The translations under genes were made by a program, and so were the position numbers. The notes under the pieces were generated by a model. That model did no database searches and was not told the DNA's origin. It saw only the letters and a list, made by a program, of their open reading frames with translations. A stretch of 60,551 nt of DNA from a virus (Duplodnaviria; Caudoviricetes): positions 1 to 60,551 of IMG/VR virus record IMGVR_UViG_3300036818_000059. One strand, 5' to 3'. Positions 1 through 60,551 of the stretch are shown piece after piece (position 1 is the first letter of the stretch; every line of letters starts with the position of its first letter).

Positions 1-237
1 CCACTCCACGGGCGAGTCCTCGGTGACCGGCTTGTCGGCGTCGAACCCGAAGATCCGGCACATCTGCTGGCCGGTCGGCACGTCGACGCCTTCGTCCCAG
101 CGGAACACGCGCACCACGAAGGGGTCGGCGTTCTCGTCGTACATGCGGACGAACTGGCCGGGACGGATGTGGATGGCCAGACGGTTGCGCCCGTGCTTCT
201 CCAGCAGGCCCAGGCGGCTCACGGTCGTGGTGCTCAT
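1..237 (-). CDS. Hypothetical protein, 5' part (MSTTTVSRLGLLEK...SPVEW), runs off position 1
   Basis: GGAGG RBS and ATG at 237, open high-GC3 frame to base 1; not in the ORF track. Confidence 0.75.
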   Translation of the reverse strand, partial: MSTTTVSRLGLLEKHGRNRLAIHIRPGQFVRMYDENADPFVVRVFRWDEGVDVPTGQQMCRIFGFDADKPVTEDSPVEW

Positions 238-282
238 GTGTCCTCCAAGGACGCAGGGGCGGGCGGGTGGTGGGTCAGCGGT

Positions 283-336
283 TCGGGACTCGTCAGGCCG
301 GTCACAATCCCGGCGACCGCTCACGCGGTTTCGTCC
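283..336 (-). ncRNA. Type II hammerhead ribozyme HHR1, canonical core, predicted cleavage between 315 and 314
   Basis: Minus strand reads GGAC-GAAA-CCGC(GUGA)GCGG-UC^GCCGG(GAUUGUGA)CCGGC-CUGACGA-GUCC-CGA: core CUGANGA, GAAA, GUC and three complete stems. Confidence 0.93.
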
Positions 337-348
337 AGGCGGGTGGGG

Positions 349-576
349 TCAGAGCGCACAGCCCGAGCAGAGCGGGAACACGTCGAACTTGGGGCCGTCC
401 GGCGTCTGGATCAGGAACGGCAGCGCCTCACCGCAGATCTCGCAGTGCCGCTGCACGAAGGCGAAGCCGGTGGCGTGCCGGGTCACAACGCCGAGTTCGA
501 GACCGGACAGGATCATCGGCGCGGGCAGCTCGTCGACCTCGTGGGCCATCAGTGCGGTGGTGGTTGCGGTGGTCAT
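349..576 (-). CDS. 75-aa protein with two CxxC motifs (putative zinc ribbon), flanked by hammerheads
   Basis: AAGGAG RBS; CEIC...CSGC. Confidence 0.8.
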   Translation of the reverse strand: MTTATTTALMAHEVDELPAPMILSGLELGVVTRHATGFAFVQRHCEICGEALPFLIQTPDGPKFDVFPLCSGCAL

Positions 577-593
577 CTCGGGCTCCTTGGCTG

Positions 594-647
594 TCGGTAC
601 TCATCGGCCGGGTCTCGATCCCCGGGACGCCTCGCGGCGTTTCGTCC
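594..647 (-). ncRNA. Type II hammerhead ribozyme HHR2, U4C core variant, predicted cleavage between 626 and 625
   Basis: GGAC-GAAA-CGCC(GCGA)GGCG-UC^CCGGG(GAUCGAGA)CCCGG-CCGAUGA-GUAC-CGA; same length as HHR1 with compensatory stem changes; one G.A mismatch in stem II. Confidence 0.82.
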
Positions 648-653
648 AGTGGT

Positions 654-812
654 TCAGCGGTCGTAGTCGGTGGGTTCGTCGTCGCGCGGGTCGGGCTCGC
701 GGTCCGCGCGGGCGGTGCGCTCGGCGAAGTCGGCGGCACGGATGCGCCGGCGGATCGCGGCCGCCGAGTCGGCGGGGGCGATGGCCTGGCGCCACTCCGC
801 GTTCGCGGACAT
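654..812 (-). CDS. 52-aa hypothetical protein (MSANAEWRQ...)
   Basis: TGATG coupling to the upstream ORF, high GC3. Confidence 0.6.
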   Translation of the reverse strand: MSANAEWRQAIAPADSAAAIRRRIRAADFAERTARADREPDPRDDEPTDYDR

Positions 813-913
813 CAGCGGCAGACGCACTTGTGGGTCAGCAGTCCGCACGACGGACAACGCTCGATCGGCTCGGCGATGTGGGCGGTCATCTTGGCCAGTG
901 TGGTGACGCTCAT
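812..913 (-). CDS. 33-aa Cys-rich peptide (MSVTTLAK...CPSCGLLTHKCVCR)
   Basis: GAGG RBS; first ORF after the predicted promoter. Confidence 0.55.
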   Translation of the reverse strand: MSVTTLAKMTAHIAEPIERCPSCGLLTHKCVCR

Positions 914-938
914 CGAGACTTCCTCTCGTTCTGTCTAT

Positions 939-1030
939 GCCACATAGTGTGGCATAGTGAGTTGGCCACGTCAAGTGGCTTCATTGGTGGGCCATCTTGT
1001 GAGGCAAAGCCGGACGTGACACCATGTGGC
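939..1030. promoter_or_regulatory. Divergent promoter region with four GCCAC-N5-GTGGC-type operators; leftward promoter TTGACG-17-CACACT
   Basis: Sites start at 939, 965, 991, 1016 (first two perfect, last two degenerate); -35 at 974-969. Confidence 0.7.
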
Positions 1031-1031
1031 C

Positions 1032-1220
1032 ATGACGCTGGAGGAGGCCGCGCGCGCATACCGTCGCGCCGAGAAGGTGCTTGAGGAGCGTCGAGCCGAC
1101 CTCGCGGCCGCGATCGTCGAGGCAGCCGCCTCCGGTCGCCCCCAGGTGGAGATCGTCAGGATCAGCGGGTATGCCCGCGAGCACGTGCGCCGCATCGTCC
1201 GCGCAGCCGAGTCCGACTGA
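1032..1220 (+). CDS. Small HTH regulator
   Basis: C-terminal QVEIVRISGYAREHVRRIV helix-turn-helix pattern. Confidence 0.75.
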   Translation: MTLEEAARAYRRAEKVLEERRADLAAAIVEAAASGRPQVEIVRISGYAREHVRRIVRAAESD

Positions 1221-1222
1221 CC

Positions 1223-1630
1223 TCACGCCGCACGCTCCGTCGCCTCAACGACGAGCCACAGCCGCCGCACGCGGAAGAACGAGCCGTGGCGCAGGTGGAG
1301 CACCGGCATCAGTTCGGTAACCCACGCCGCCGTGTCGTCGGGCACGACGCGCGCATCGACAAGGCCATCGACTGCTGGCTTCTGCGTGGCCGTGAGGTTG
1401 CTCGCGTCGCGGCGGATGGAGTCTCCAGGCGCGTAGTGCAGCTGGACCGTGATGTGATCCTGCGGCGGGATGCGGGCCTCCTTCGCTCGCCATGCCACTC
1501 CGGTGCGGATCGTGGCCACGTGACCCGCCTTGATGCGCCAGTGCAGCCGGTCGTTCGCGGACAGCGGCTGGAGCTTGCCCGTGGTTCCCGGCACGACGAG
1601 CGGGACGTCCAGTTCCCAGCGGGCGGTCAC
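1223..1630 (-). CDS. RusA-like Holliday junction resolvase
   Basis: D-x-x-N...K...DGL...DD motif (RRDASNL..KPAVDGLV...VPDD). Confidence 0.75.
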   Translation of the reverse strand: MTARWELDVPLVVPGTTGKLQPLSANDRLHWRIKAGHVATIRTGVAWRAKEARIPPQDHITVQLHYAPGDSIRRDASNLTATQKPAVDGLVDARVVPDDTAAWVTELMPVLHLRHGSFFRVRRLWLVVEATERAA

Positions 1631-1956
1631 TTGGACCACCTCTCGGCCGCCGCCGCGCGCTGCTCCTCGGTCATCTCTGGACTGCGCCACAGGCCGTCCC
1701 GCAGTTCCATGCCGTCGATGCCGGTCGGGTCGATGCAGGCGAAGCCGCGGCGGTGGCGATCGAACAGGCCAGCCGTCGCGAAGGTCCGGTGACAGTTGGG
1801 CGCCGTGCAGTGCGCCCGGCTGCTACCGGTCCATCGGGCGTCACAGCCCGAGCAGGTCGCGGTCTGAGTTCGCCGCTGCGGCTCGCTGGCCGGCTGGACA
1901 TCCGCTGACACCAGGGAGGCGGCGTTCGTGTCCTGGGCGCTCTCCTGGGCGGTCAT
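1627..1956 (-). CDS. FDXHR-type zinc-binding protein
   Basis: CxxC...HC..CHRTF...FDRHR. Confidence 0.7.
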   Translation of the reverse strand: MTAQESAQDTNAASLVSADVQPASEPQRRTQTATCSGCDARWTGSSRAHCTAPNCHRTFATAGLFDRHRRGFACIDPTGIDGMELRDGLWRSPEMTEEQRAAAAERWSK

Positions 1957-2612
1957 GCGGCACCACGAGACCTGCGCCGGTCGTCGCCCTTGAGCGTGAC
2001 GCGCTGGCACATCTCGACCAGCCTTGAGGCGACCCGCTCGCCGATCTCCTCGCGGAGCGACTTCACCGCCACGTTGCTCGTGATGATCGTCGGCAGCCGG
2101 TGCTCGTAGCGGTGGTTGATCAGCCGGTAGTTGACCTCCTCGGTCCACTCCGACGCCTTGGCCGCGCCGAGGTCGTCCAGCAGCAGCAAGCGGGCGCCGG
2201 CGAACCGCTCGAACTCCAGTTCGCTGTCCACCTTGGGCCGCGGCCGTAGGCAGGCGTACACGTCGGCTGCGGTGGTGGCCAGCCACGAGCAGTGCAAGCC
2301 GCTCACCGCGATCGCGCGGATGGCGCCGTAAGCCTGGTGCGTCTTGCCGGTCCCGGTCGGCCCGAGCAGTAGCAGCGACGGACCCTGCGTGACTGCGGGG
2401 ACGAAGCCACGCATCCTCTCCACCGTCTCGTCAGCCAGCGCACGCACCCACCTGGCAACTTCCGGGTTGTCCACGTTGGCATCCGCGTAGCGGGTCGGGA
2501 TGTCCTTCGCGCATCTCGCGGCACCACGCTCGATGGCCTCCGCGAGGTCGTGCCGGTCCAGGCCGCGGTCCGGGTAGGCGGCGGCGAGGTCGATCAGCTT
2601 CGGGTCAGTCAT
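1953..2612 (-). CDS. DnaC/IstB-like AAA+ helicase loader
   Basis: Walker A GPTGTGKT, Walker B LLLLDDLG, PTIITSN, RVASRL. Confidence 0.9.
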   Translation of the reverse strand: MTDPKLIDLAAAYPDRGLDRHDLAEAIERGAARCAKDIPTRYADANVDNPEVARWVRALADETVERMRGFVPAVTQGPSLLLLGPTGTGKTHQAYGAIRAIAVSGLHCSWLATTAADVYACLRPRPKVDSELEFERFAGARLLLLDDLGAAKASEWTEEVNYRLINHRYEHRLPTIITSNVAVKSLREEIGERVASRLVEMCQRVTLKGDDRRRSRGAA

Positions 2613-2614
2613 GG

Positions 2615-3562
2615 CTACAGGTCCTCGTCGTAGGCGTTCGCGTCAGTGGGGTTGCGGTAGGGCTGGTAGTCGCCTGCGGCGCGAGCCTGGACCACGGCGG
2701 ATTCCCAGCAGTCGCCCTTGAGCCAGCGTTCGGCGTCCTTGCGGAACTTCGGGTCTGGCGTCGCGGCGACGTACGGGCCGACAGCTCGGGCGATCAAGGC
2801 TGGATCGGCGCGCTTGATGGCCCTGGCCCACTCGCCTGCCGCTGTCCTCTTGGCGCCCTTGCGGCCGTAGGCGATCCAGAACGCCTCGAAGTCGGGGGTG
2901 TAGGCGGTCCTCGCGCGCTCCGCTGCCGTAGGCAGCGGGTGGCAGTTCAATGGCAGTTCTTCTAATGGCAGTTCAATGGCAGTTCTAGGGCTGCGACCAG
3001 CAGGTGTGACGCAGTCGACTGCGTCACGAACGCCGTCCGACGGCGTCACATGACGCTCTCCCACGGCGTCACTGACGCTCTCCCACGGCGTCACATCTCC
3101 ATTGGTGACGCCGTCCGACGGCGTCACATGACGCTCTCCCACGGCGTCACCGCTGATCTGTGTGACGCCGTGGGAGAGCGTCACCGCGCGGTTCTTGCGG
3201 AGCTTCGCCATCCGCTCCCGCGTCCCCTGACGCTTACGCTCCCGCCGGCCCACAGGGTCCTCGGCAGACTCCCGGCTGCGATCCATGATGAGCGCCCACA
3301 CCTCGCAGCCCGTCCCACCGAAGCGCCCTTCTGACTGGATCAGCCCGGCCGCGGCGAGCCGACCCAGGGCAGCGGAGACGGTCTTGTCGTCCAGCAGCGT
3401 GGCGTCCGCCAGTGTCGGCACCGACGGGCGCGCGCGGCCATCCTTGCCAGCCCACGTGGCCAACGCGAGCAGCACGTGGTGCGCGGTCGAGTCCGGCTTC
3501 CCGTCGGCACGTCGCACGACGGGAGCCGTCCTCGCCCACCGGATGGAGGCGAACGCGGTCAC
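2615..3562 (-). CDS. Replication initiator (N-terminal winged HTH) containing the origin
   Basis: PSVPTLADAT...TVSAALGRL HTH, C-terminal FEAFWIAY motif, internal iterons, precedes the loader. Confidence 0.8.
   Translation of the reverse strand: MTAFASIRWARTAPVVRRADGKPDSTAHHVLLALATWAGKDGRARPSVPTLADATLLDDKTVSAALGRLAAAGLIQSEGRFGGTGCEVWALIMDRSRESAEDPVGRRERKRQGTRERMAKLRKNRAVTLSHGVTQISGDAVGERHVTPSDGVTNGDVTPWESVSDAVGERHVTPSDGVRDAVDCVTPAGRSPRTAIELPLEELPLNCHPLPTAAERARTAYTPDFEAFWIAYGRKGAKRTAAGEWARAIKRADPALIARAVGPYVAATPDPKFRKDAERWLKGDCWESAVVQARAAGDYQPYRNPTDANAYDEDL
2940..3184. repeat. Replication origin: about seven quasi-palindromic 22-23 bp iterons plus AT-richer TGGCAGTTC repeats
   Basis: TGACGCTCTCCCACGGCGTCAC x3 plus one inverted copy, ACGCCGTCCGACGGCGTCAC x2, perfect palindrome 3006-3027; TGGCAGTTC x4 at 2940-2985. 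Confidence 0.75.
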
Positions 3563-56718: not shown

Positions 56719-57890
56719 GCCGCGGTCCTCTCGATCAGTTCGGGCAACATCGCCCGGTACGCCAACAGGGCTTGGGCCGGCACGACGCCGTTGCCCAGCA
56801 GATGCAGTTGCTCGTTGCGGGACAGGCCGGCGACTTCGGTGACCCATCCGGCGGGCAGGCCCATCAGCCACTCCACGAACACGGGGTTCAACTGGCGTCC
56901 GCCTCGTCGTCCCACAACGACAGGGTCAGGTGCGGGTCGACCGAGGACGAGCTCCCAGCGGCGGACGGCGGGCCCGTACGGTCCCCATGCCAGCTCGGGG
57001 GCAGCTCGTCCCAGCTCGTGAACTCCCTCGGCAGGATGCCGTTCGCGATCTCCACCGCTTGGTCCAGCGACGGCGACGAGCGACTGGTCGGACTGAGCGC
57101 CGCACCGCGACTGGTCCGGGTCGCCGACACTCGATGGGTTGGCAACAGAGGGTCGGCCGGCACTGCGGTCCCATCCCAGACCTCCCGGGCGATCCCCGTC
57201 AGCAGCAGCTCGTCCGAGCGGGCCCCGCCCCGTGCCGCTCTCGTCCCATCCGCATCGGCCACCGTCGTGGTCGGCAGGAGTTTCGCGATCGCGTCGTCGA
57301 GGTTCCGCTTGCCCTGCGCAAAACGCTTCGCCGCCGTCTTGCTCGACATGCTCCTCGATGAGTGATCCCCATCCCTCGCCTGCGCGGTCGGCAGCAACGG
57401 CGAGGATGAAGCACCGCTCGCGACGGTGGGGAGCACCAGCGTCGGACGCTCGTACACAGCGCCATTCCGCATCGAACCCCAGCGCGGCCAGGTCACCGGC
57501 GGCTCGGGCAAGCTCTCCGGCCACAACGATGCGACTGACGTTTTCCAGGAGCACGATGCGGGGTCGTAGGTCGCGAATGGCTCGCGCGACCGCGGGCCAG
57601 ATAGCTCGCTCATCCTCGGTTCCCTTCTGCTTGCCGGCTGAGCTGAATGGCTGGCAGGGCCATCCCGCGGTGAGCCAGTCGATCCGCCCGGCCCACGGCG
57701 CCCAGTCGGCTGTGGTGATGTCTCCGACGTTCGGCACGCCGGGCCAGTGGGCGTCGAGGACGCGGCAGGCGGGCTGGTACTGCTCGCCGTGCACGACGAC
57801 GTCTCCGCCGAGCAGCTCGCGTGCCGCCCGATCGAGGCCGCCGTAGCCACTGCAGAGCGACGCGCCGGCGAGGGTGTCGCTGTCGCTCAT
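56715..57890 (-). CDS. DNA (cytosine-5) methyltransferase
   Basis: LCSGYGG, GWPCQPFS, ENV, HRRER, LNPVFVEWLMG, GNGVV. Confidence 0.92.
   Translation of the reverse strand: MSDSDTLAGASLCSGYGGLDRAARELLGGDVVVHGEQYQPACRVLDAHWPGVPNVGDITTADWAPWAGRIDWLTAGWPCQPFSSAGKQKGTEDERAIWPAVARAIRDLRPRIVLLENVSRIVVAGELARAAGDLAALGFDAEWRCVRASDAGAPHRRERCFILAVAADRAGEGWGSLIEEHVEQDGGEAFCAGQAEPRRRDRETPADHDGGRCGWDESGTGRGPLGRAAADGDRPGGLGWDRSAGRPSVANPSSVGDPDQSRCGAQSDQSLVAVAGPSGGDRERHPAEGVHELGRAAPELAWGPYGPAVRRWELVLGRPAPDPVVVGRRGGRQLNPVFVEWLMGLPAGWVTEVAGLSRNEQLHLLGNGVVPAQALLAYRAMLPELIERTAA
56888..57613 (-). CDS. Nested alternative-frame ORF inside the methyltransferase gene
   Basis: GAGG RBS and ATG; TWPRWGSMRNG and three LLPT repeats. 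Confidence 0.65.
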   Translation of the reverse strand: MSELSGPRSREPFATYDPASCSWKTSVASLWPESLPEPPVTWPRWGSMRNGAVYERPTLVLPTVASGASSSPLLPTAQARDGDHSSRSMSSKTAAKRFAQGKRNLDDAIAKLLPTTTVADADGTRAARGGARSDELLLTGIAREVWDGTAVPADPLLPTHRVSATRTSRGAALSPTSRSSPSLDQAVEIANGILPREFTSWDELPPSWHGDRTGPPSAAGSSSSVDPHLTLSLWDDEADAS

Positions 57891-57891
57891 C

Positions 57892-57950
57892 GGTCCTCCA
57901 GGTCCCGGGGTGTCCCGGCTCGGGGGTGGCGAGCCGGGACGGGCGGGGGG
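57892..57950 (-). repeat. Intergenic hairpin plus RBS repeat, copy 1 (copy 2 near 59240-59297)
   Basis: GTCCCGGCTCG-CCACCCC-CGAGCCGGGAC followed by CCTGGAGGA. Confidence 0.85.
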
Positions 57951-58271
57951 TCAGGAGGTGGGCTCGGCGCGCAGTTGGCCAGCGGTGCGTTCGAGGTCGC
58001 CGATGATCTCCTCGACGTCCTGCGGCAGGTGGATGCCCAGATCCGCGAGCCGGTTGTCCAGGGCTCGCAGGCTGTCCGCCAAGCGCAGACGGTCGGCCGC
58101 GACGATCAGCGGGGCCGCTACGCGCACGGCCTCCATGATCAGACCCGAGACGTTGTCGTCCTCCAGCACGGATGCGTGGTAGTCGGCCTTGACCGCGGCG
58201 GCAATCCGGGCCAGCGGGATCGCCTCGGCGATCGCGCGCCCTGCCTCGTCCGGGATGGTGATCTCGCTCAT
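57951..58271 (-). CDS. Hypothetical protein
   Basis: GAGGA RBS. Confidence 0.65.
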   Translation of the reverse strand: MSEITIPDEAGRAIAEAIPLARIAAAVKADYHASVLEDDNVSGLIMEAVRVAAPLIVAADRLRLADSLRALDNRLADLGIHLPQDVEEIIGDLERTAGQLRAEPTS

Positions 58272-58300
58272 CGGTCCTCGTTTCGGTCGGGGTGCCGCGC

Positions 58301-58684
58301 TCAGGCAGCGAGGAGAGCATTGGCCAGTTCGCGGCAGCCGGTCGGCACCATGTCCGCTCCGTCGTGCCACTTGCGCCGCATCCGGGCGATCAGACGCCCG
58401 TACGGCACCGAGCAGTAGCCCTCCCGCCAGTGCTCGACCAGTTCGTCCAGCAGGTCACCGAGCGGCCATCCGTGACACATCACGGACATCACCTCGGAGG
58501 CGGCGTCGCAGTGCTGGCAGATCTTGTGTTCCTCCCACCTGCCGCCGCAGTGGCCCTTGATCCGCAGGTAGGGCTCGCCGGTCTGGATCGTGCGGCCACA
58601 CTCGGTGCAGCAGTGGCTCTTGTGAGCGAGGGGCCTCGTCTCGGTGACCACGTCCCACGGATCGCAGTCCTCTACTCGACACAT
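58301..58684 (-). CDS. Zinc-binding hypothetical protein
   Basis: CTECGRTI..GE.Y, CQHC. Confidence 0.7.
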   Translation of the reverse strand: MCRVEDCDPWDVVTETRPLAHKSHCCTECGRTIQTGEPYLRIKGHCGGRWEEHKICQHCDAASEVMSVMCHGWPLGDLLDELVEHWREGYCSVPYGRLIARMRRKWHDGADMVPTGCRELANALLAA

Positions 58685-58700
58685 GATCGGGTTCCTTTCG

Positions 58701-58885
58701 CGGGGTGCCGCGCTCAGCGGTCGGCGGGGTGCCTCGTGCCCGGGGGAAGTCGGGCACGAGGCGGGTCGGTCACTTGCGCTTCGGGTCCTGCTTCTCCTGC
58801 TGCTTGCGGTTCCATTCCTGGGCGCCGCGCACGATGCCGTCGAACATCGGGTCGGGCTTGTCTTGCTTGGCCATGTCGGTCTCCT
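58701..58885 (-). repeat. 185-bp direct repeat, copy 1
   Basis: Matches 59640-59824 with three mismatches. Confidence 0.92.
58770..58874 (-). CDS. 34-aa peptide MAKQDKPDPMFDGIVRGAQEWNRKQQEKQDPKRK
   Basis: AGGAG RBS, high GC3, duplicated. Confidence 0.7.
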   Translation of the reverse strand: MAKQDKPDPMFDGIVRGAQEWNRKQQEKQDPKRK

Positions 58886-59008
58886 CGGTGTGTCGTGCTC
58901 TGCGTTCGTTGAGCGGTCGGTCTCGGTGGGTGGCCACGGGTCATCAGGGCCAGGAGATGTCGAGCCACAGCAGACGGCCGTGCGCGGACGACTGGTGGGC
59001 GGACATGC

Positions 59009-59197
59009 TCACGGCAGGACGGTCACGTCGGCGCGGTCGAGGTCGGCCACGGTCTCGGTGGTCCAGTCCTCCGGGTCGCGCGGCGAGGCGAACCGGACGC
59101 GCCGCTGGGATTCGTCGCCCACGTCGCAGTTCGGGTGGTGCCCGGCCTGAGGCGCACCCTCGTACGGGTACTCGCAGGTGCACTCGGGCTCGGTCAC
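59009..59197 (-). CDS. Small hypothetical protein, possibly 5'-damaged
   Basis: High GC3; the RBS-linked ATG at 59231 is out of frame with it. Confidence 0.45.
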   Translation of the reverse strand: MTEPECTCEYPYEGAPQAGHHPNCDVGDESQRRVRFASPRDPEDWTTETVADLDRADVTVLP

Positions 59198-59239
59198 GGC
59201 GGTGATGCGGTAGACGTGCCACTGTGGTCATTCGGTCGA

Positions 59240-59297
59240 TCCTCCAGGTCTCGGGGTGTCCCGGCTCGGGGGTGGCGAGCCGGGACGGGCAGGGGGT
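59240..59297 (-). repeat. Intergenic hairpin plus RBS repeat, copy 2
   Basis: Near-identical to 57892-57950. Confidence 0.85.
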
Positions 59298-59611
59298 CAG
59301 GGGGTGGCGGGCGTGATGGTCGACTTCCAATGAGGCATCGCGGCGTGGCGTCCGTCCCACAGGACGTAGGCCATGTCGTCCTTGAATCTGGTGATCGTTC
59401 CGATCGCGGTGGTCTGCCCGACGTGCGTGACTCGGTCTCCGACCGCCAGCTCGCGCGGGGTGTCGTTGTCGATGTGCGGTTTGTCGGCGCCCTCGCCGCC
59501 GCCCAGCAGGCCCTCGTCGCGCAGTGCTTGAGCGATGTCCTGCGCCAGTCCGTCGTGGCTCGGCATATAGGTCTCGATGATGCGTGCGGCCTTGTCGGTG
59601 TTGTCGGTCAT
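59297..59611 (-). CDS. Hypothetical protein with SH3-like C-terminus
   Basis: GAGGA RBS; VGDRVTH...GTI...V.WD. Confidence 0.65.
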   Translation of the reverse strand: MTDNTDKAARIIETYMPSHDGLAQDIAQALRDEGLLGGGEGADKPHIDNDTPRELAVGDRVTHVGQTTAIGTITRFKDDMAYVLWDGRHAAMPHWKSTITPATP

Positions 59612-59639
59612 CGGGGTGTCCTCTCGGGTCGGCAGGGTT

Positions 59640-59824
59640 CGGGGTGCCGCGCTCAGCGGGCGGCGGGGTGCCTCGTGCCCGGGGGAAGTCAGGCACGAGG
59701 CGGGTCGGTCACTTGCGCTTCGGGTCCTGCTTCTCCTGCTGCTTGCGGTTCCATTCCTGGGCGCCGCGCACGATGCCGTCGAACATCGGGTCGGGCTTGT
59801 CTTCCTTGGCCATGTCGGTCTCCT
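59640..59824 (-). repeat. 185-bp direct repeat, copy 2
   Basis: Matches 58701-58885. Confidence 0.92.
59709..59813 (-). CDS. 34-aa peptide MAKEDKPDPMFDGIVRGAQEWNRKQQEKQDPKRK
   Basis: AAGGAG RBS, second copy. Confidence 0.7.
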   Translation of the reverse strand: MAKEDKPDPMFDGIVRGAQEWNRKQQEKQDPKRK

Positions 59825-59935
59825 TCGGCTACTTCGTGGTGCGTGTCGGGGGTGGCTGGGCACCCGGTCCGATGGGGGGTGAGCCCGGGTGCCCAGCCGT
59901 GCCGGGAGTCGGCGGACTCCAGCGGCGGAGGGAGG

Positions 59936-60148
59936 TCAGGAAGGCTCCAGTTCGCTCGGCTCTGGCATGCCCGGCTCGGTCTCCCACTCGCGGCGCTGGA
60001 TCGACGTGTCGACCTGGTACAGAGCTGAGTCGATGTCGTTCCACGCACCGGACGAGCCGAAGCCGACGTCCTGCCAGTCCTCGTTGCCCGTGTTGCGCTG
60101 GATCGTGAACTCGATCCGGTACTCGGCAGTCTCGGTGGTGGCGCTCAT
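59936..60148 (-). CDS. Hypothetical protein
   Basis: GAGGAG RBS. Confidence 0.7.
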   Translation of the reverse strand: MSATTETAEYRIEFTIQRNTGNEDWQDVGFGSSGAWNDIDSALYQVDTSIQRREWETEPGMPEPSELEPS

Positions 60149-60156
60149 GTCTCTCC

Positions 60157-60393
60157 TCAGTGGTCGGTCGGGTCGTAGGGGACGCCGAGCTGTTCGAACT
60201 CGCGCTTCAGGGCGTCTTCCTGGTGCCGTGCGCCCGCGCTGCCAGCGTCGAACCGGTCGGAGTAGGCGTCGTCGCTGATCCAGCCGCAGTCGCACACGGC
60301 CTCGTGGCGGCGACCGACCGGTCGCGTGGACACCTTGTGCTGGTCGTAGACGCTCAGCGCCGCGACCTCTCGCAGGGTTGAGTCGGATACCAC
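60157..60393 (-). CDS. Small zinc-binding hypothetical protein
   Basis: GAGGAG RBS; AVCDCGW...H. Confidence 0.65.
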   Translation of the reverse strand: MVSDSTLREVAALSVYDQHKVSTRPVGRRHEAVCDCGWISDDAYSDRFDAGSAGARHQEDALKREFEQLGVPYDPTDH

Positions 60394-60475
60394 GGGTCTC
60401 TCCTCAGCGGTCGGTGTGCGGGTCGGTCGGACTGCCAGGGCCGTGCCCGTCACACTCGGGCACGACGCCAAGCGG

Positions 60476-60550
60476 TCAGGGGGTTTCGGTCAGGCCGCAG
60501 CGCTTCGCGTCACGGGCCGAGATCGACAGGACCGTCTCGCCGGCCGGGAC
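60476..60550 (-). CDS. 3' end of a gene entering from the window edge (VPAGETVLSISARDAKRCGLTETP*)
   Basis: High GC3 frame; probable continuation of the 1-237 ORF. Confidence 0.55.
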   Translation of the reverse strand, partial: VPAGETVLSISARDAKRCGLTETP

Positions 60551-60551
60551 C

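Follow-up and report, generated by a model that had tools for sequence, protein, structure and literature searches.

According to the available part of a 2011 survey, type II hammerhead ribozymes are common in bacteria and are often situated near prophage genes (Perreault 2011, PMC3088659). The same part of the survey reports that "on many occasions" prophages have single genes or short runs of genes bordered by several hammerheads, that the identity of these genes is not constant, and that the ribozymes are proposed to cut long phage transcripts down to mRNAs of gene length. Clustered prophage hammerheads from three arrangements or species cleaved in vitro, and one did so in E. coli; of the consensus hammerheads tested 14 of 18 were active and 4 of 18 inactive (Perreault 2011, PMC3088659). 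In the published type II consensus, loop I pairs with the tail immediately 3′ of stem II to form a pseudoknot, which matters for the speed of cleavage (Perreault 2011, PMC3088659, available part). The arrangement treated below and the hypothesis that it serves to cut mRNA were already described in 2011 and are not new. A 2019 review states that additional work is needed to define the purpose of phage hammerheads.

The window, that is, the whole stretch of 60,551 nt that was analysed, is nearly all of a 60.6-kb contig (C11). It encodes an integrase, an anti-repressor, a single-strand annealing protein, a replication initiator, a DnaC-like loader and RusA, as well as terminase subunits, a portal, a major head protein and a tape measure protein; the phage is a temperate siphophage. 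Near its first end lie two hammerhead elements, HHR1 and HHR2, on the minus strand, which is the coding strand of the co-oriented small genes that separate them. The features of this region are as follows.

Positions 336-286, minus strand: HHR1, type II hammerhead with canonical core, 51 nt, a match to the strict descriptor
Positions 647-597, minus strand: HHR2, variant of the hammerhead in which position 4 is C (U4C, C606) and stem II is weak, with A598 mismatched or bulged
Positions 1..237, minus strand: ORF downstream of HHR1, running off the window; GC3 0.96
Positions 349..576, minus strand: 75-aa ORF between the two elements, with CxxC...CxxC motifs; GC3 0.89
Positions 654..812, minus strand: 52-aa ORF that stops 6 nt ahead of HHR2 and whose ATG overlaps the stop of the upstream 33-aa ORF; GC3 0.94
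Positions 812..913, minus strand: 33-aa ORF, first of the small-gene unit; GC3 0.85
Positions 935..957: perfect inverted repeat of 10 nt around a spacer of 3 nt, with the small-gene unit on one side and the divergent HTH gene on the other
Positions 1026..1220, plus strand: divergent gene for a 64-aa HTH protein (Pfam HTH_28, E 5.1e-5, just below the cut-off); GC3 0.86

The initial annotation had placed the two elements 311 nt apart, each after a stop codon and before the next ribosome-binding site, and this proved accurate. The start-to-start distance is 311 nt, and the stop codons at 351-349 and 656-654 precede stem II by 12 nt in HHR1 and by 6 nt in HHR2. Downstream of HHR1 there is GGAGGA at 246-241 with an ATG at 237, and downstream of HHR2 AAGGAG at 588-583 with an ATG at 576. 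Since GC3 is 0.85-0.96 in a genome of 68% GC, we read the four small ORFs as coding. ARAGORN called a 97-nt tRNA-Pro(CGG) at 678-774 on the plus strand, opposite the 52-aa ORF with its high GC3; because of this overlap and its unusual length the call looks false.

Both elements have the topology of type II hammerheads, in which stems I and III are closed by loops and stem II is open at the 5′ and 3′ ends. From 5′ to 3′ they consist of GGAC, GAAA, A, a 4-bp hairpin with a GNRA loop, U, C, a 5-bp hairpin with an 8-nt loop, the 7-nt core strand and the partner of stem II. Read from the sequence, HHR1 has stem II GGAC/GUCC followed by GAAA, stem III CCGC-GUGA-GCGG, stem I GCCGG and CCGGC around the 8-nt loop GAUUGUGA, and the core strand CUGACGA. 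It fits the hammerhead core as defined in the Methods of Perreault 2011 (C3 U4 G5 A6 N7 G8 A9, G12 A13 A14 A15.1, U16.1 H17) at every position and obeys the helix rules given there, so the complete core claimed for it (CUGACGA, GAAA, UC) is indeed present. HHR2 has stem II GGAC/GUAC, stem III CGCC-GCGA-GGCG, stem I CCGGG and CCCGG around the loop GAUCGAGA, and the core strand CCGAUGA; it departs from the core at position 4, where it has C instead of U (U4C), and fits the remaining positions. The three helices and the standard pairs beside the core (10.1-11.1, 1.1-2.1 and 15.1-16.1) are present in both elements, with a mismatch or bulge at the third position of stem II in HHR2. Cleavage is predicted between C315 and G314 in HHR1, after U316 C315, and between C626 and C625 in HHR2, after U627 C626, which agrees with the first bases of the 3′ products (314 and 625) predicted earlier.

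In isolation, the minimum-free-energy fold of a 58-nt HHR1 RNA is the hammerhead three-way junction, at -22.2 kcal/mol. With longer context the optimum for HHR1 is not the hammerhead, and co-transcriptional folding of the local hairpins would favour the hammerhead despite this optimum. HHR1 is very probably an active hammerhead, as predicted from its sequence. In the minimum-free-energy fold of HHR2, stems I and III are retained, A598 is bulged out, and three further pairs (G-C, G-C and U.G) are made with the 3′ tail. Thus the U4C change noted in the initial annotation stands, but the G.A mismatch in stem II is only one register and the optimal fold has a bulge there instead. HHR2 aligns with HHR1 and the other copies of its own genome at 86% mean column identity; we take it to be a hammerhead by descent whose catalytic competence is uncertain.

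How often would such elements arise by chance? The strict type II descriptor, comprising the full core and all three helices, was run over both strands of the 9.08-Mb genome and gave three matches, namely HHR1 and the related 51-nt elements on contigs C102 and C156. On ten Markov-1 genomes of the same size it gave 4, 1, 0, 0, 0, 1, 0, 1, 0 and 0 matches (mean 0.7), an expectation of about 0.005 per window when scaled to 60 kb. A relaxed descriptor allowing U4C and one mismatch in stem II adds HHR2 and three long-looped, chance-like matches, where the simulations gave 1-3.

The Rfam type II model, by which the elements were to have been checked, did not recover them. At the gathering score Rfam gave no match in the window and none over the cut-off in the genome. 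RF02276 (Hammerhead_II), whose gathering score is 37, scored 20.1 bits for HHR1 (E 0.44 in 1.5 kb) and 15.9 bits for HHR2 (E 5.5), and over the whole genome it returned only unrelated matches at 20.1-22 bits. Rfam therefore cannot separate this subfamily from noise. The model shares the permutation and the core with HHR1 and HHR2 and aligns end to end with both, but it is built for a stem I that is longer than theirs and has a short loop, a stem II of 2 bp and a tail that is conserved. It misses this subfamily, including the copies in isolated phages described below, and so such ribozymes go unannotated.

Relatives were sought by other means. A covariance model built from four copies of the same genome found a fifth own copy at C13:629-687 (locus L018), which has a 1-nt insertion after A6, and matched 10 of the 151 related genomes, counting the window's own, and four of six other genomes of the same genus. 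One of the related genomes (G002) has a tandem pair 245 nt apart around a single small gene, with G8A in the upstream copy. The copy on C13 sits upstream of an integrase gene. Two other own-genome copies, C102:85412-85462 and C156:28304-28354 (L001, L002), come after a conserved gene of 116-126 aa; their element carries a DUF2637 protein and no phage structural genes are nearby, so these elements may be conjugative or integrative.

Independently of that model, we searched with a pattern that specifies the core and the GGAC/GUCC stem II but leaves stems I and III free to pair or not. Genome contigs gave 56 stretches from many phyla with 55 distinct matches; both stems form, with at least 4 contiguous bp, in 45 of the 55, and the other 10 look chance-like. 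Viral contigs gave at least 157 matches on at least 119 stretches, and 149 of the 157 matches listed form both stems; among the matches listed, clusters of 2-5 copies occur on 21 of 113 viral locus-strands, at spacings of 250-2586 nt. The position of the members is constant, with a stop codon 2-20 nt upstream, and many have a Shine-Dalgarno site and a start about 10-35 nt downstream.

The initial annotation had proposed covariation from the two copies, and it extends to the relatives. In 53 distinct aligned sequences 99.5% of cells pair in stems I and III. Changes on both sides of a pair occur in 155 cells, against 42 in shuffles and at most 29 in slid registers, and they affect 8 of the 10 pairs of these stems. 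The covariation score is 0.597, against 0.111 for shuffled and at most 0.059 for slid alignments; the sequences had been aligned by fitting them to the model, and since the search pattern sets stem II, that helix is uninformative here. The open stem II, the consensus helices and the covarying relatives support the assignment of both HHR1 and HHR2 to the type II hammerhead lineage, in agreement with the first reading of the sequence.

Two isolated phages carry close parallels. In Saccharomonospora phage PIS 136 (JX006077.1) there is an unannotated pair of the same subfamily, scoring 63.5 and 62.8 bits with the own-copy model. The two copies are 414 nt apart and flank a single small gene, PIS_068, in the same order of stop codon, ribozyme and start as in the window; they differ in a longer stem III. 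Streptomyces phage Wentworth (MH019216.1) has five unannotated hits on one strand, again in the layout of stop codon, ribozyme and start. The proteins flanked in PIS 136 and Wentworth are unrelated to those of the window. The HHphage ribozyme of the haloviruses HF1 and HF2 is similar as a core-variant hammerhead in an early polycistronic phage transcript, 13 nt before a start codon, and a 5′ end has been mapped no more than 3 nt from its cut site; it differs as a ribozyme of an archaeal virus, tuned to high salt and present in single copy (Perreault 2011, available part).

With the clusters in the available part of Perreault 2011 the present elements share the type II topology, the consensus core, copies on one strand flanking single genes or blocks, and non-conserved neighbours. 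They differ from these in loop I and its surroundings. Most published type II hammerheads have a loop I/tail pseudoknot of at least 4 bp, whereas in this subfamily there is none above chance level; unlike most of those in the available part of the survey, its members conserve an 8-nt loop I and the flanks 5′-CU and 3′-C and have a stem II of 4 bp. The named carriers of the 8-nt loop I subfamily belong to Pseudonocardiaceae: Saccharopolyspora, Lentzea, Sciscionella and Actinophytocola. A search of the literature on actinophage hammerheads and on alternative type II structures gave nothing relevant beyond Perreault 2011, and the subfamily may already be among the supplementary alignments of that work, of which we refer to the available part. 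The window presents a clean unannotated case of hammerheads clustered in the genome of a high-GC actinomycete phage.

A contact between loop I and the CGA tail had been suggested for both copies, and it was rejected. The pairing amounts to only 3 bp in HHR1 and in HHR2, short of the 4 bp that define the pseudoknot. Across 19 members of the subfamily the longest loop-tail helix averages 3.47 bp, compared with 3.49 for shuffled and 3.64 for swapped tails, and the CGA tail is also found with loops that are unable to pair with it. What is conserved instead is the 8-nt loop I, of the form purine-A-N-N-G-A/U-G-A, together with 5′-CU before stem II and 3′-C after it, both flanks being present in all members with the 8-nt loop I. 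It is tempting to suppose that the actinomycete subfamily relies on some tertiary contact different from the published pseudoknot, with loop I, 5′-CU and 3′-C as candidate partners, but we hold this proposal to be tentative and rather doubtful.

How should the defects of HHR2 be understood? U4 is kept in 17 of the 19 subfamily members, the exceptions being HHR2 and a viral copy (L044), and GUCC is kept in 18, the exception being HHR2; since both are nearly constant, we read U4C and the change in stem II of HHR2 as derived. The substitution itself is a recurrent natural core variant. It occurs in 5 of the 45 well-folded genome matches and in 3 of the 149 well-folded viral matches among those listed. 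Among 136 distinct viral hits of the model (150 of 158 hits aligned) it accounts for two of the three core variants, the third being A13G. On one viral contig (L112) a U4C copy lies 486 nt from a canonical one. The same substitution as in HHR2 is known from a viroid, although there it belongs to a replication ribozyme and not to a phage mRNA element; its activity was considerably lower in vitro and sufficient in vivo for viroid infectivity (Ambros and Flores 1998, cited in the available part of Perreault 2011, PMC3088659). The filter criteria in the available Methods of that survey would reject HHR2 for its C at position 4, and the corresponding Discussion suggests that slower phage variants might respond to conditions (Perreault 2011, PMC3088659). 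HHR2 may thus be slow, conditional or dead. By analogy with the viroid variant, different cleavage rates for HHR1 and HHR2, as proposed at the outset, are plausible.

The genes around the ribozymes are not conserved among ribozyme-bearing loci. Comparison of 11 related loci revealed nothing in common but the ribozymes, with the exception of a contig-end segment shared by C11 and C13 in L018. The 75-aa ORF and the ORF downstream of HHR1 had no match in Pfam or PHROG, their proteins had no tblastn match in the phage collection, and positions 1-3000 had no megablast match in that collection. No further hammerhead relics were found in the window, which holds two one-mismatch matches to the 5′ motif without a matching 3′ half.

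The ribozymes lie past RusA, beyond the divergent HTH gene at 1026-1220 on the plus strand and the palindrome at 935-957. This position suggests that they are probably in a regulated small-gene unit of their own, and the description of the locus as an early operon becomes uncertain, with the HTH gene and the palindrome lying between. The unit is probably controlled separately, situated between the replication module and the late genes and running toward the latter. The inverted repeat is likely an operator, with the product of the HTH gene as the putative regulator of the ribozyme-bearing transcript. Scans of the minus strand from 1 to 1400 for sigma-70 promoters and terminators found none, such scans being uninformative for actinomycetes.

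The ends of C11 overlap by 23 nt, and the ORF at 1..237 continues in frame across this overlap to a stop at 60478-60476. A related phage contig, C13 (75.8 kb), shares the first 141 nt of C11 at 100% identity and its last 292 nt at 98%; the ends of C11 compared with it are positions 1-290 and 60411-60551 of the window. The overlap makes circularity of C11 plausible but, since C13 shares both ends, not certain, and the two contigs break in one common gene. The common segment begins about 8 nt past the 3′ end of HHR1, as if there were a module boundary at the ribozyme. In C13 the common gene precedes a hammerhead, and in C11 the hammerhead precedes the gene.

From the motif, strand, position, conservation and covariation observed here we infer transcription, cleavage and an effect on expression. 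In the reading that we prefer, with a probability of about 0.65, both elements are type II hammerheads on the mRNA of the small-gene unit and would cut themselves, separating the cistrons. As RNA polymerase passes, stem III and then stem I would fold as local hairpins, and stem II would close last, bringing together the CUGANGA and GAAA strands. HHR1 would then cut itself after C315, leaving a 2′,3′-cyclic phosphate on the upstream piece and a 5′-OH on G314; HHR2, handicapped by U4C and a weak stem II, would do so after C626 more slowly or only in part. The upstream piece of mRNA would end in the GNRA-capped hairpin of stem III, and the downstream piece would begin with a 5′-OH and the hairpin of stem I a few nucleotides ahead of the ribosome-binding site. 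Neighbouring cistrons would in this way be separated, and their stability and translation uncoupled. The locus, in which a single small gene is enclosed by a canonical copy and, 311 nt away, one with U4C, would make a convenient natural system for studying the function of phage hammerheads. A switch acting on the ribosome-binding site was also considered and was dropped, the unpaired probabilities being the same in cut and uncut RNA.

The main point at which this reading might fail is HHR2. If it is a decaying copy with no useful rate of cleavage, only HHR1 works and the mRNA is cut once. Such decay is suggested by its two derived defects, U4C in the core and C10.3A in stem II, and by the core damage seen in other copies, namely G8A in the upstream copy of G002 and the 1-nt insertion after A6 on C13, a kind of insertion that had low activity in published tests (Perreault 2011, PMC3088659, available part). 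However, U4C recurs in well-folded hammerheads of unrelated lineages and, in the viroid work cited in the available part of the same survey (PMC3088659), retains enough activity in vivo for infectivity, while stems I and III of HHR2 are intact and covary with those of HHR1. We consider a single working copy unlikely, though with a real chance of being right. That neither element is catalytic in vivo, both being intercistronic hairpin modules such as binding sites for RNases or proteins or stabilisers of mRNA, is very improbable. Stable hairpins and repeats without a hammerhead core do occur in other intergenic gaps on the same strand (60480-57890), but a plain hairpin role leaves unexplained the strict conservation of the single-stranded core across phyla, together with covarying helices.

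Excision of the RNA between the two cuts gives rise to a further alternative. The 311-nt RNA 625-315 would be released with a 5′-OH and a 2′,3′-cyclic phosphate, its ends would rebuild a chimeric hammerhead, with the stem III side from HHR1 and stem I and the core side from HHR2, and ligation would close it into a circular mRNA encoding the 75-aa protein. Because both copies have GGAC as one strand of stem II, the excised ends can pair as HHR2 does, and circularisation has been raised in print for tandem phage hammerheads; the same work sought spliced or circular products and, in its available part, reports none (Perreault 2011, PMC3088659). The rebuilt chimeric core would moreover have U4C, and a gene for the RtcB ligase was not found in the 95%-complete genome. 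Such a circle, if it existed, would be a phage-encoded circular mRNA of a zinc-ribbon-like 75-aa protein made in the manner of viroid-like RNAs, but it is scarcely to be expected here. Self-cutting of the mRNA by both copies remains the reading that we favour.

Several minor observations concern the genes downstream and the wider family. On the minus strand between 57890 and 60000 several intergenic gaps of the downstream genes contain a strong hairpin; the hairpin-rich gaps in 57000-60551 gave no Rfam match at E up to 1 and no other ribozyme class. There is a 72-nt repeat (57890-57961 and 59236-59307, 94%) and a 185-nt repeat (58701-58885 and 59640-59824, 98%), the latter including a duplicated 55-aa ORF.

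Another genome of the same family has seven type II hammerheads of the pseudoknot type in about 3 kb on the minus strand (G082:C1:4254360-4257361; L009, L015). In Lentzea cavernae (L061:7297-7349) half a hammerhead, consisting of the stem II strand, GAAA and stem III and followed by a long GC hairpin, lies about 360 nt downstream of a complete copy.

In 46 of the 185 distinct well-folded type II hammerheads with GGAC/GUCC among those listed, the 3′ tail contains a perfect 5-nt complement of core positions C3-N7. Shuffled tails gave a mean of 3.9 (maximum 11) and the 5′ flank gave 2; no alternative partner for the complement was found in the 5′ flanks. A helix between tail and core would exclude the active core and may act as a lock on the 3′ product after cleavage. 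Neither the available part of Perreault 2011 nor a literature search yielded a mention of this complement. It was seen in genome contigs and in viral contigs (L019-L193), and within the window's own genome in C102:85412-85480 and C156:28304-28370, not in HHR1 or HHR2. In 31 of the 46 cases it stands directly after stem II, and its base opposite N7 covaries with the core, being C with G in 17 of 20 cases and U with A in 29 of 34.
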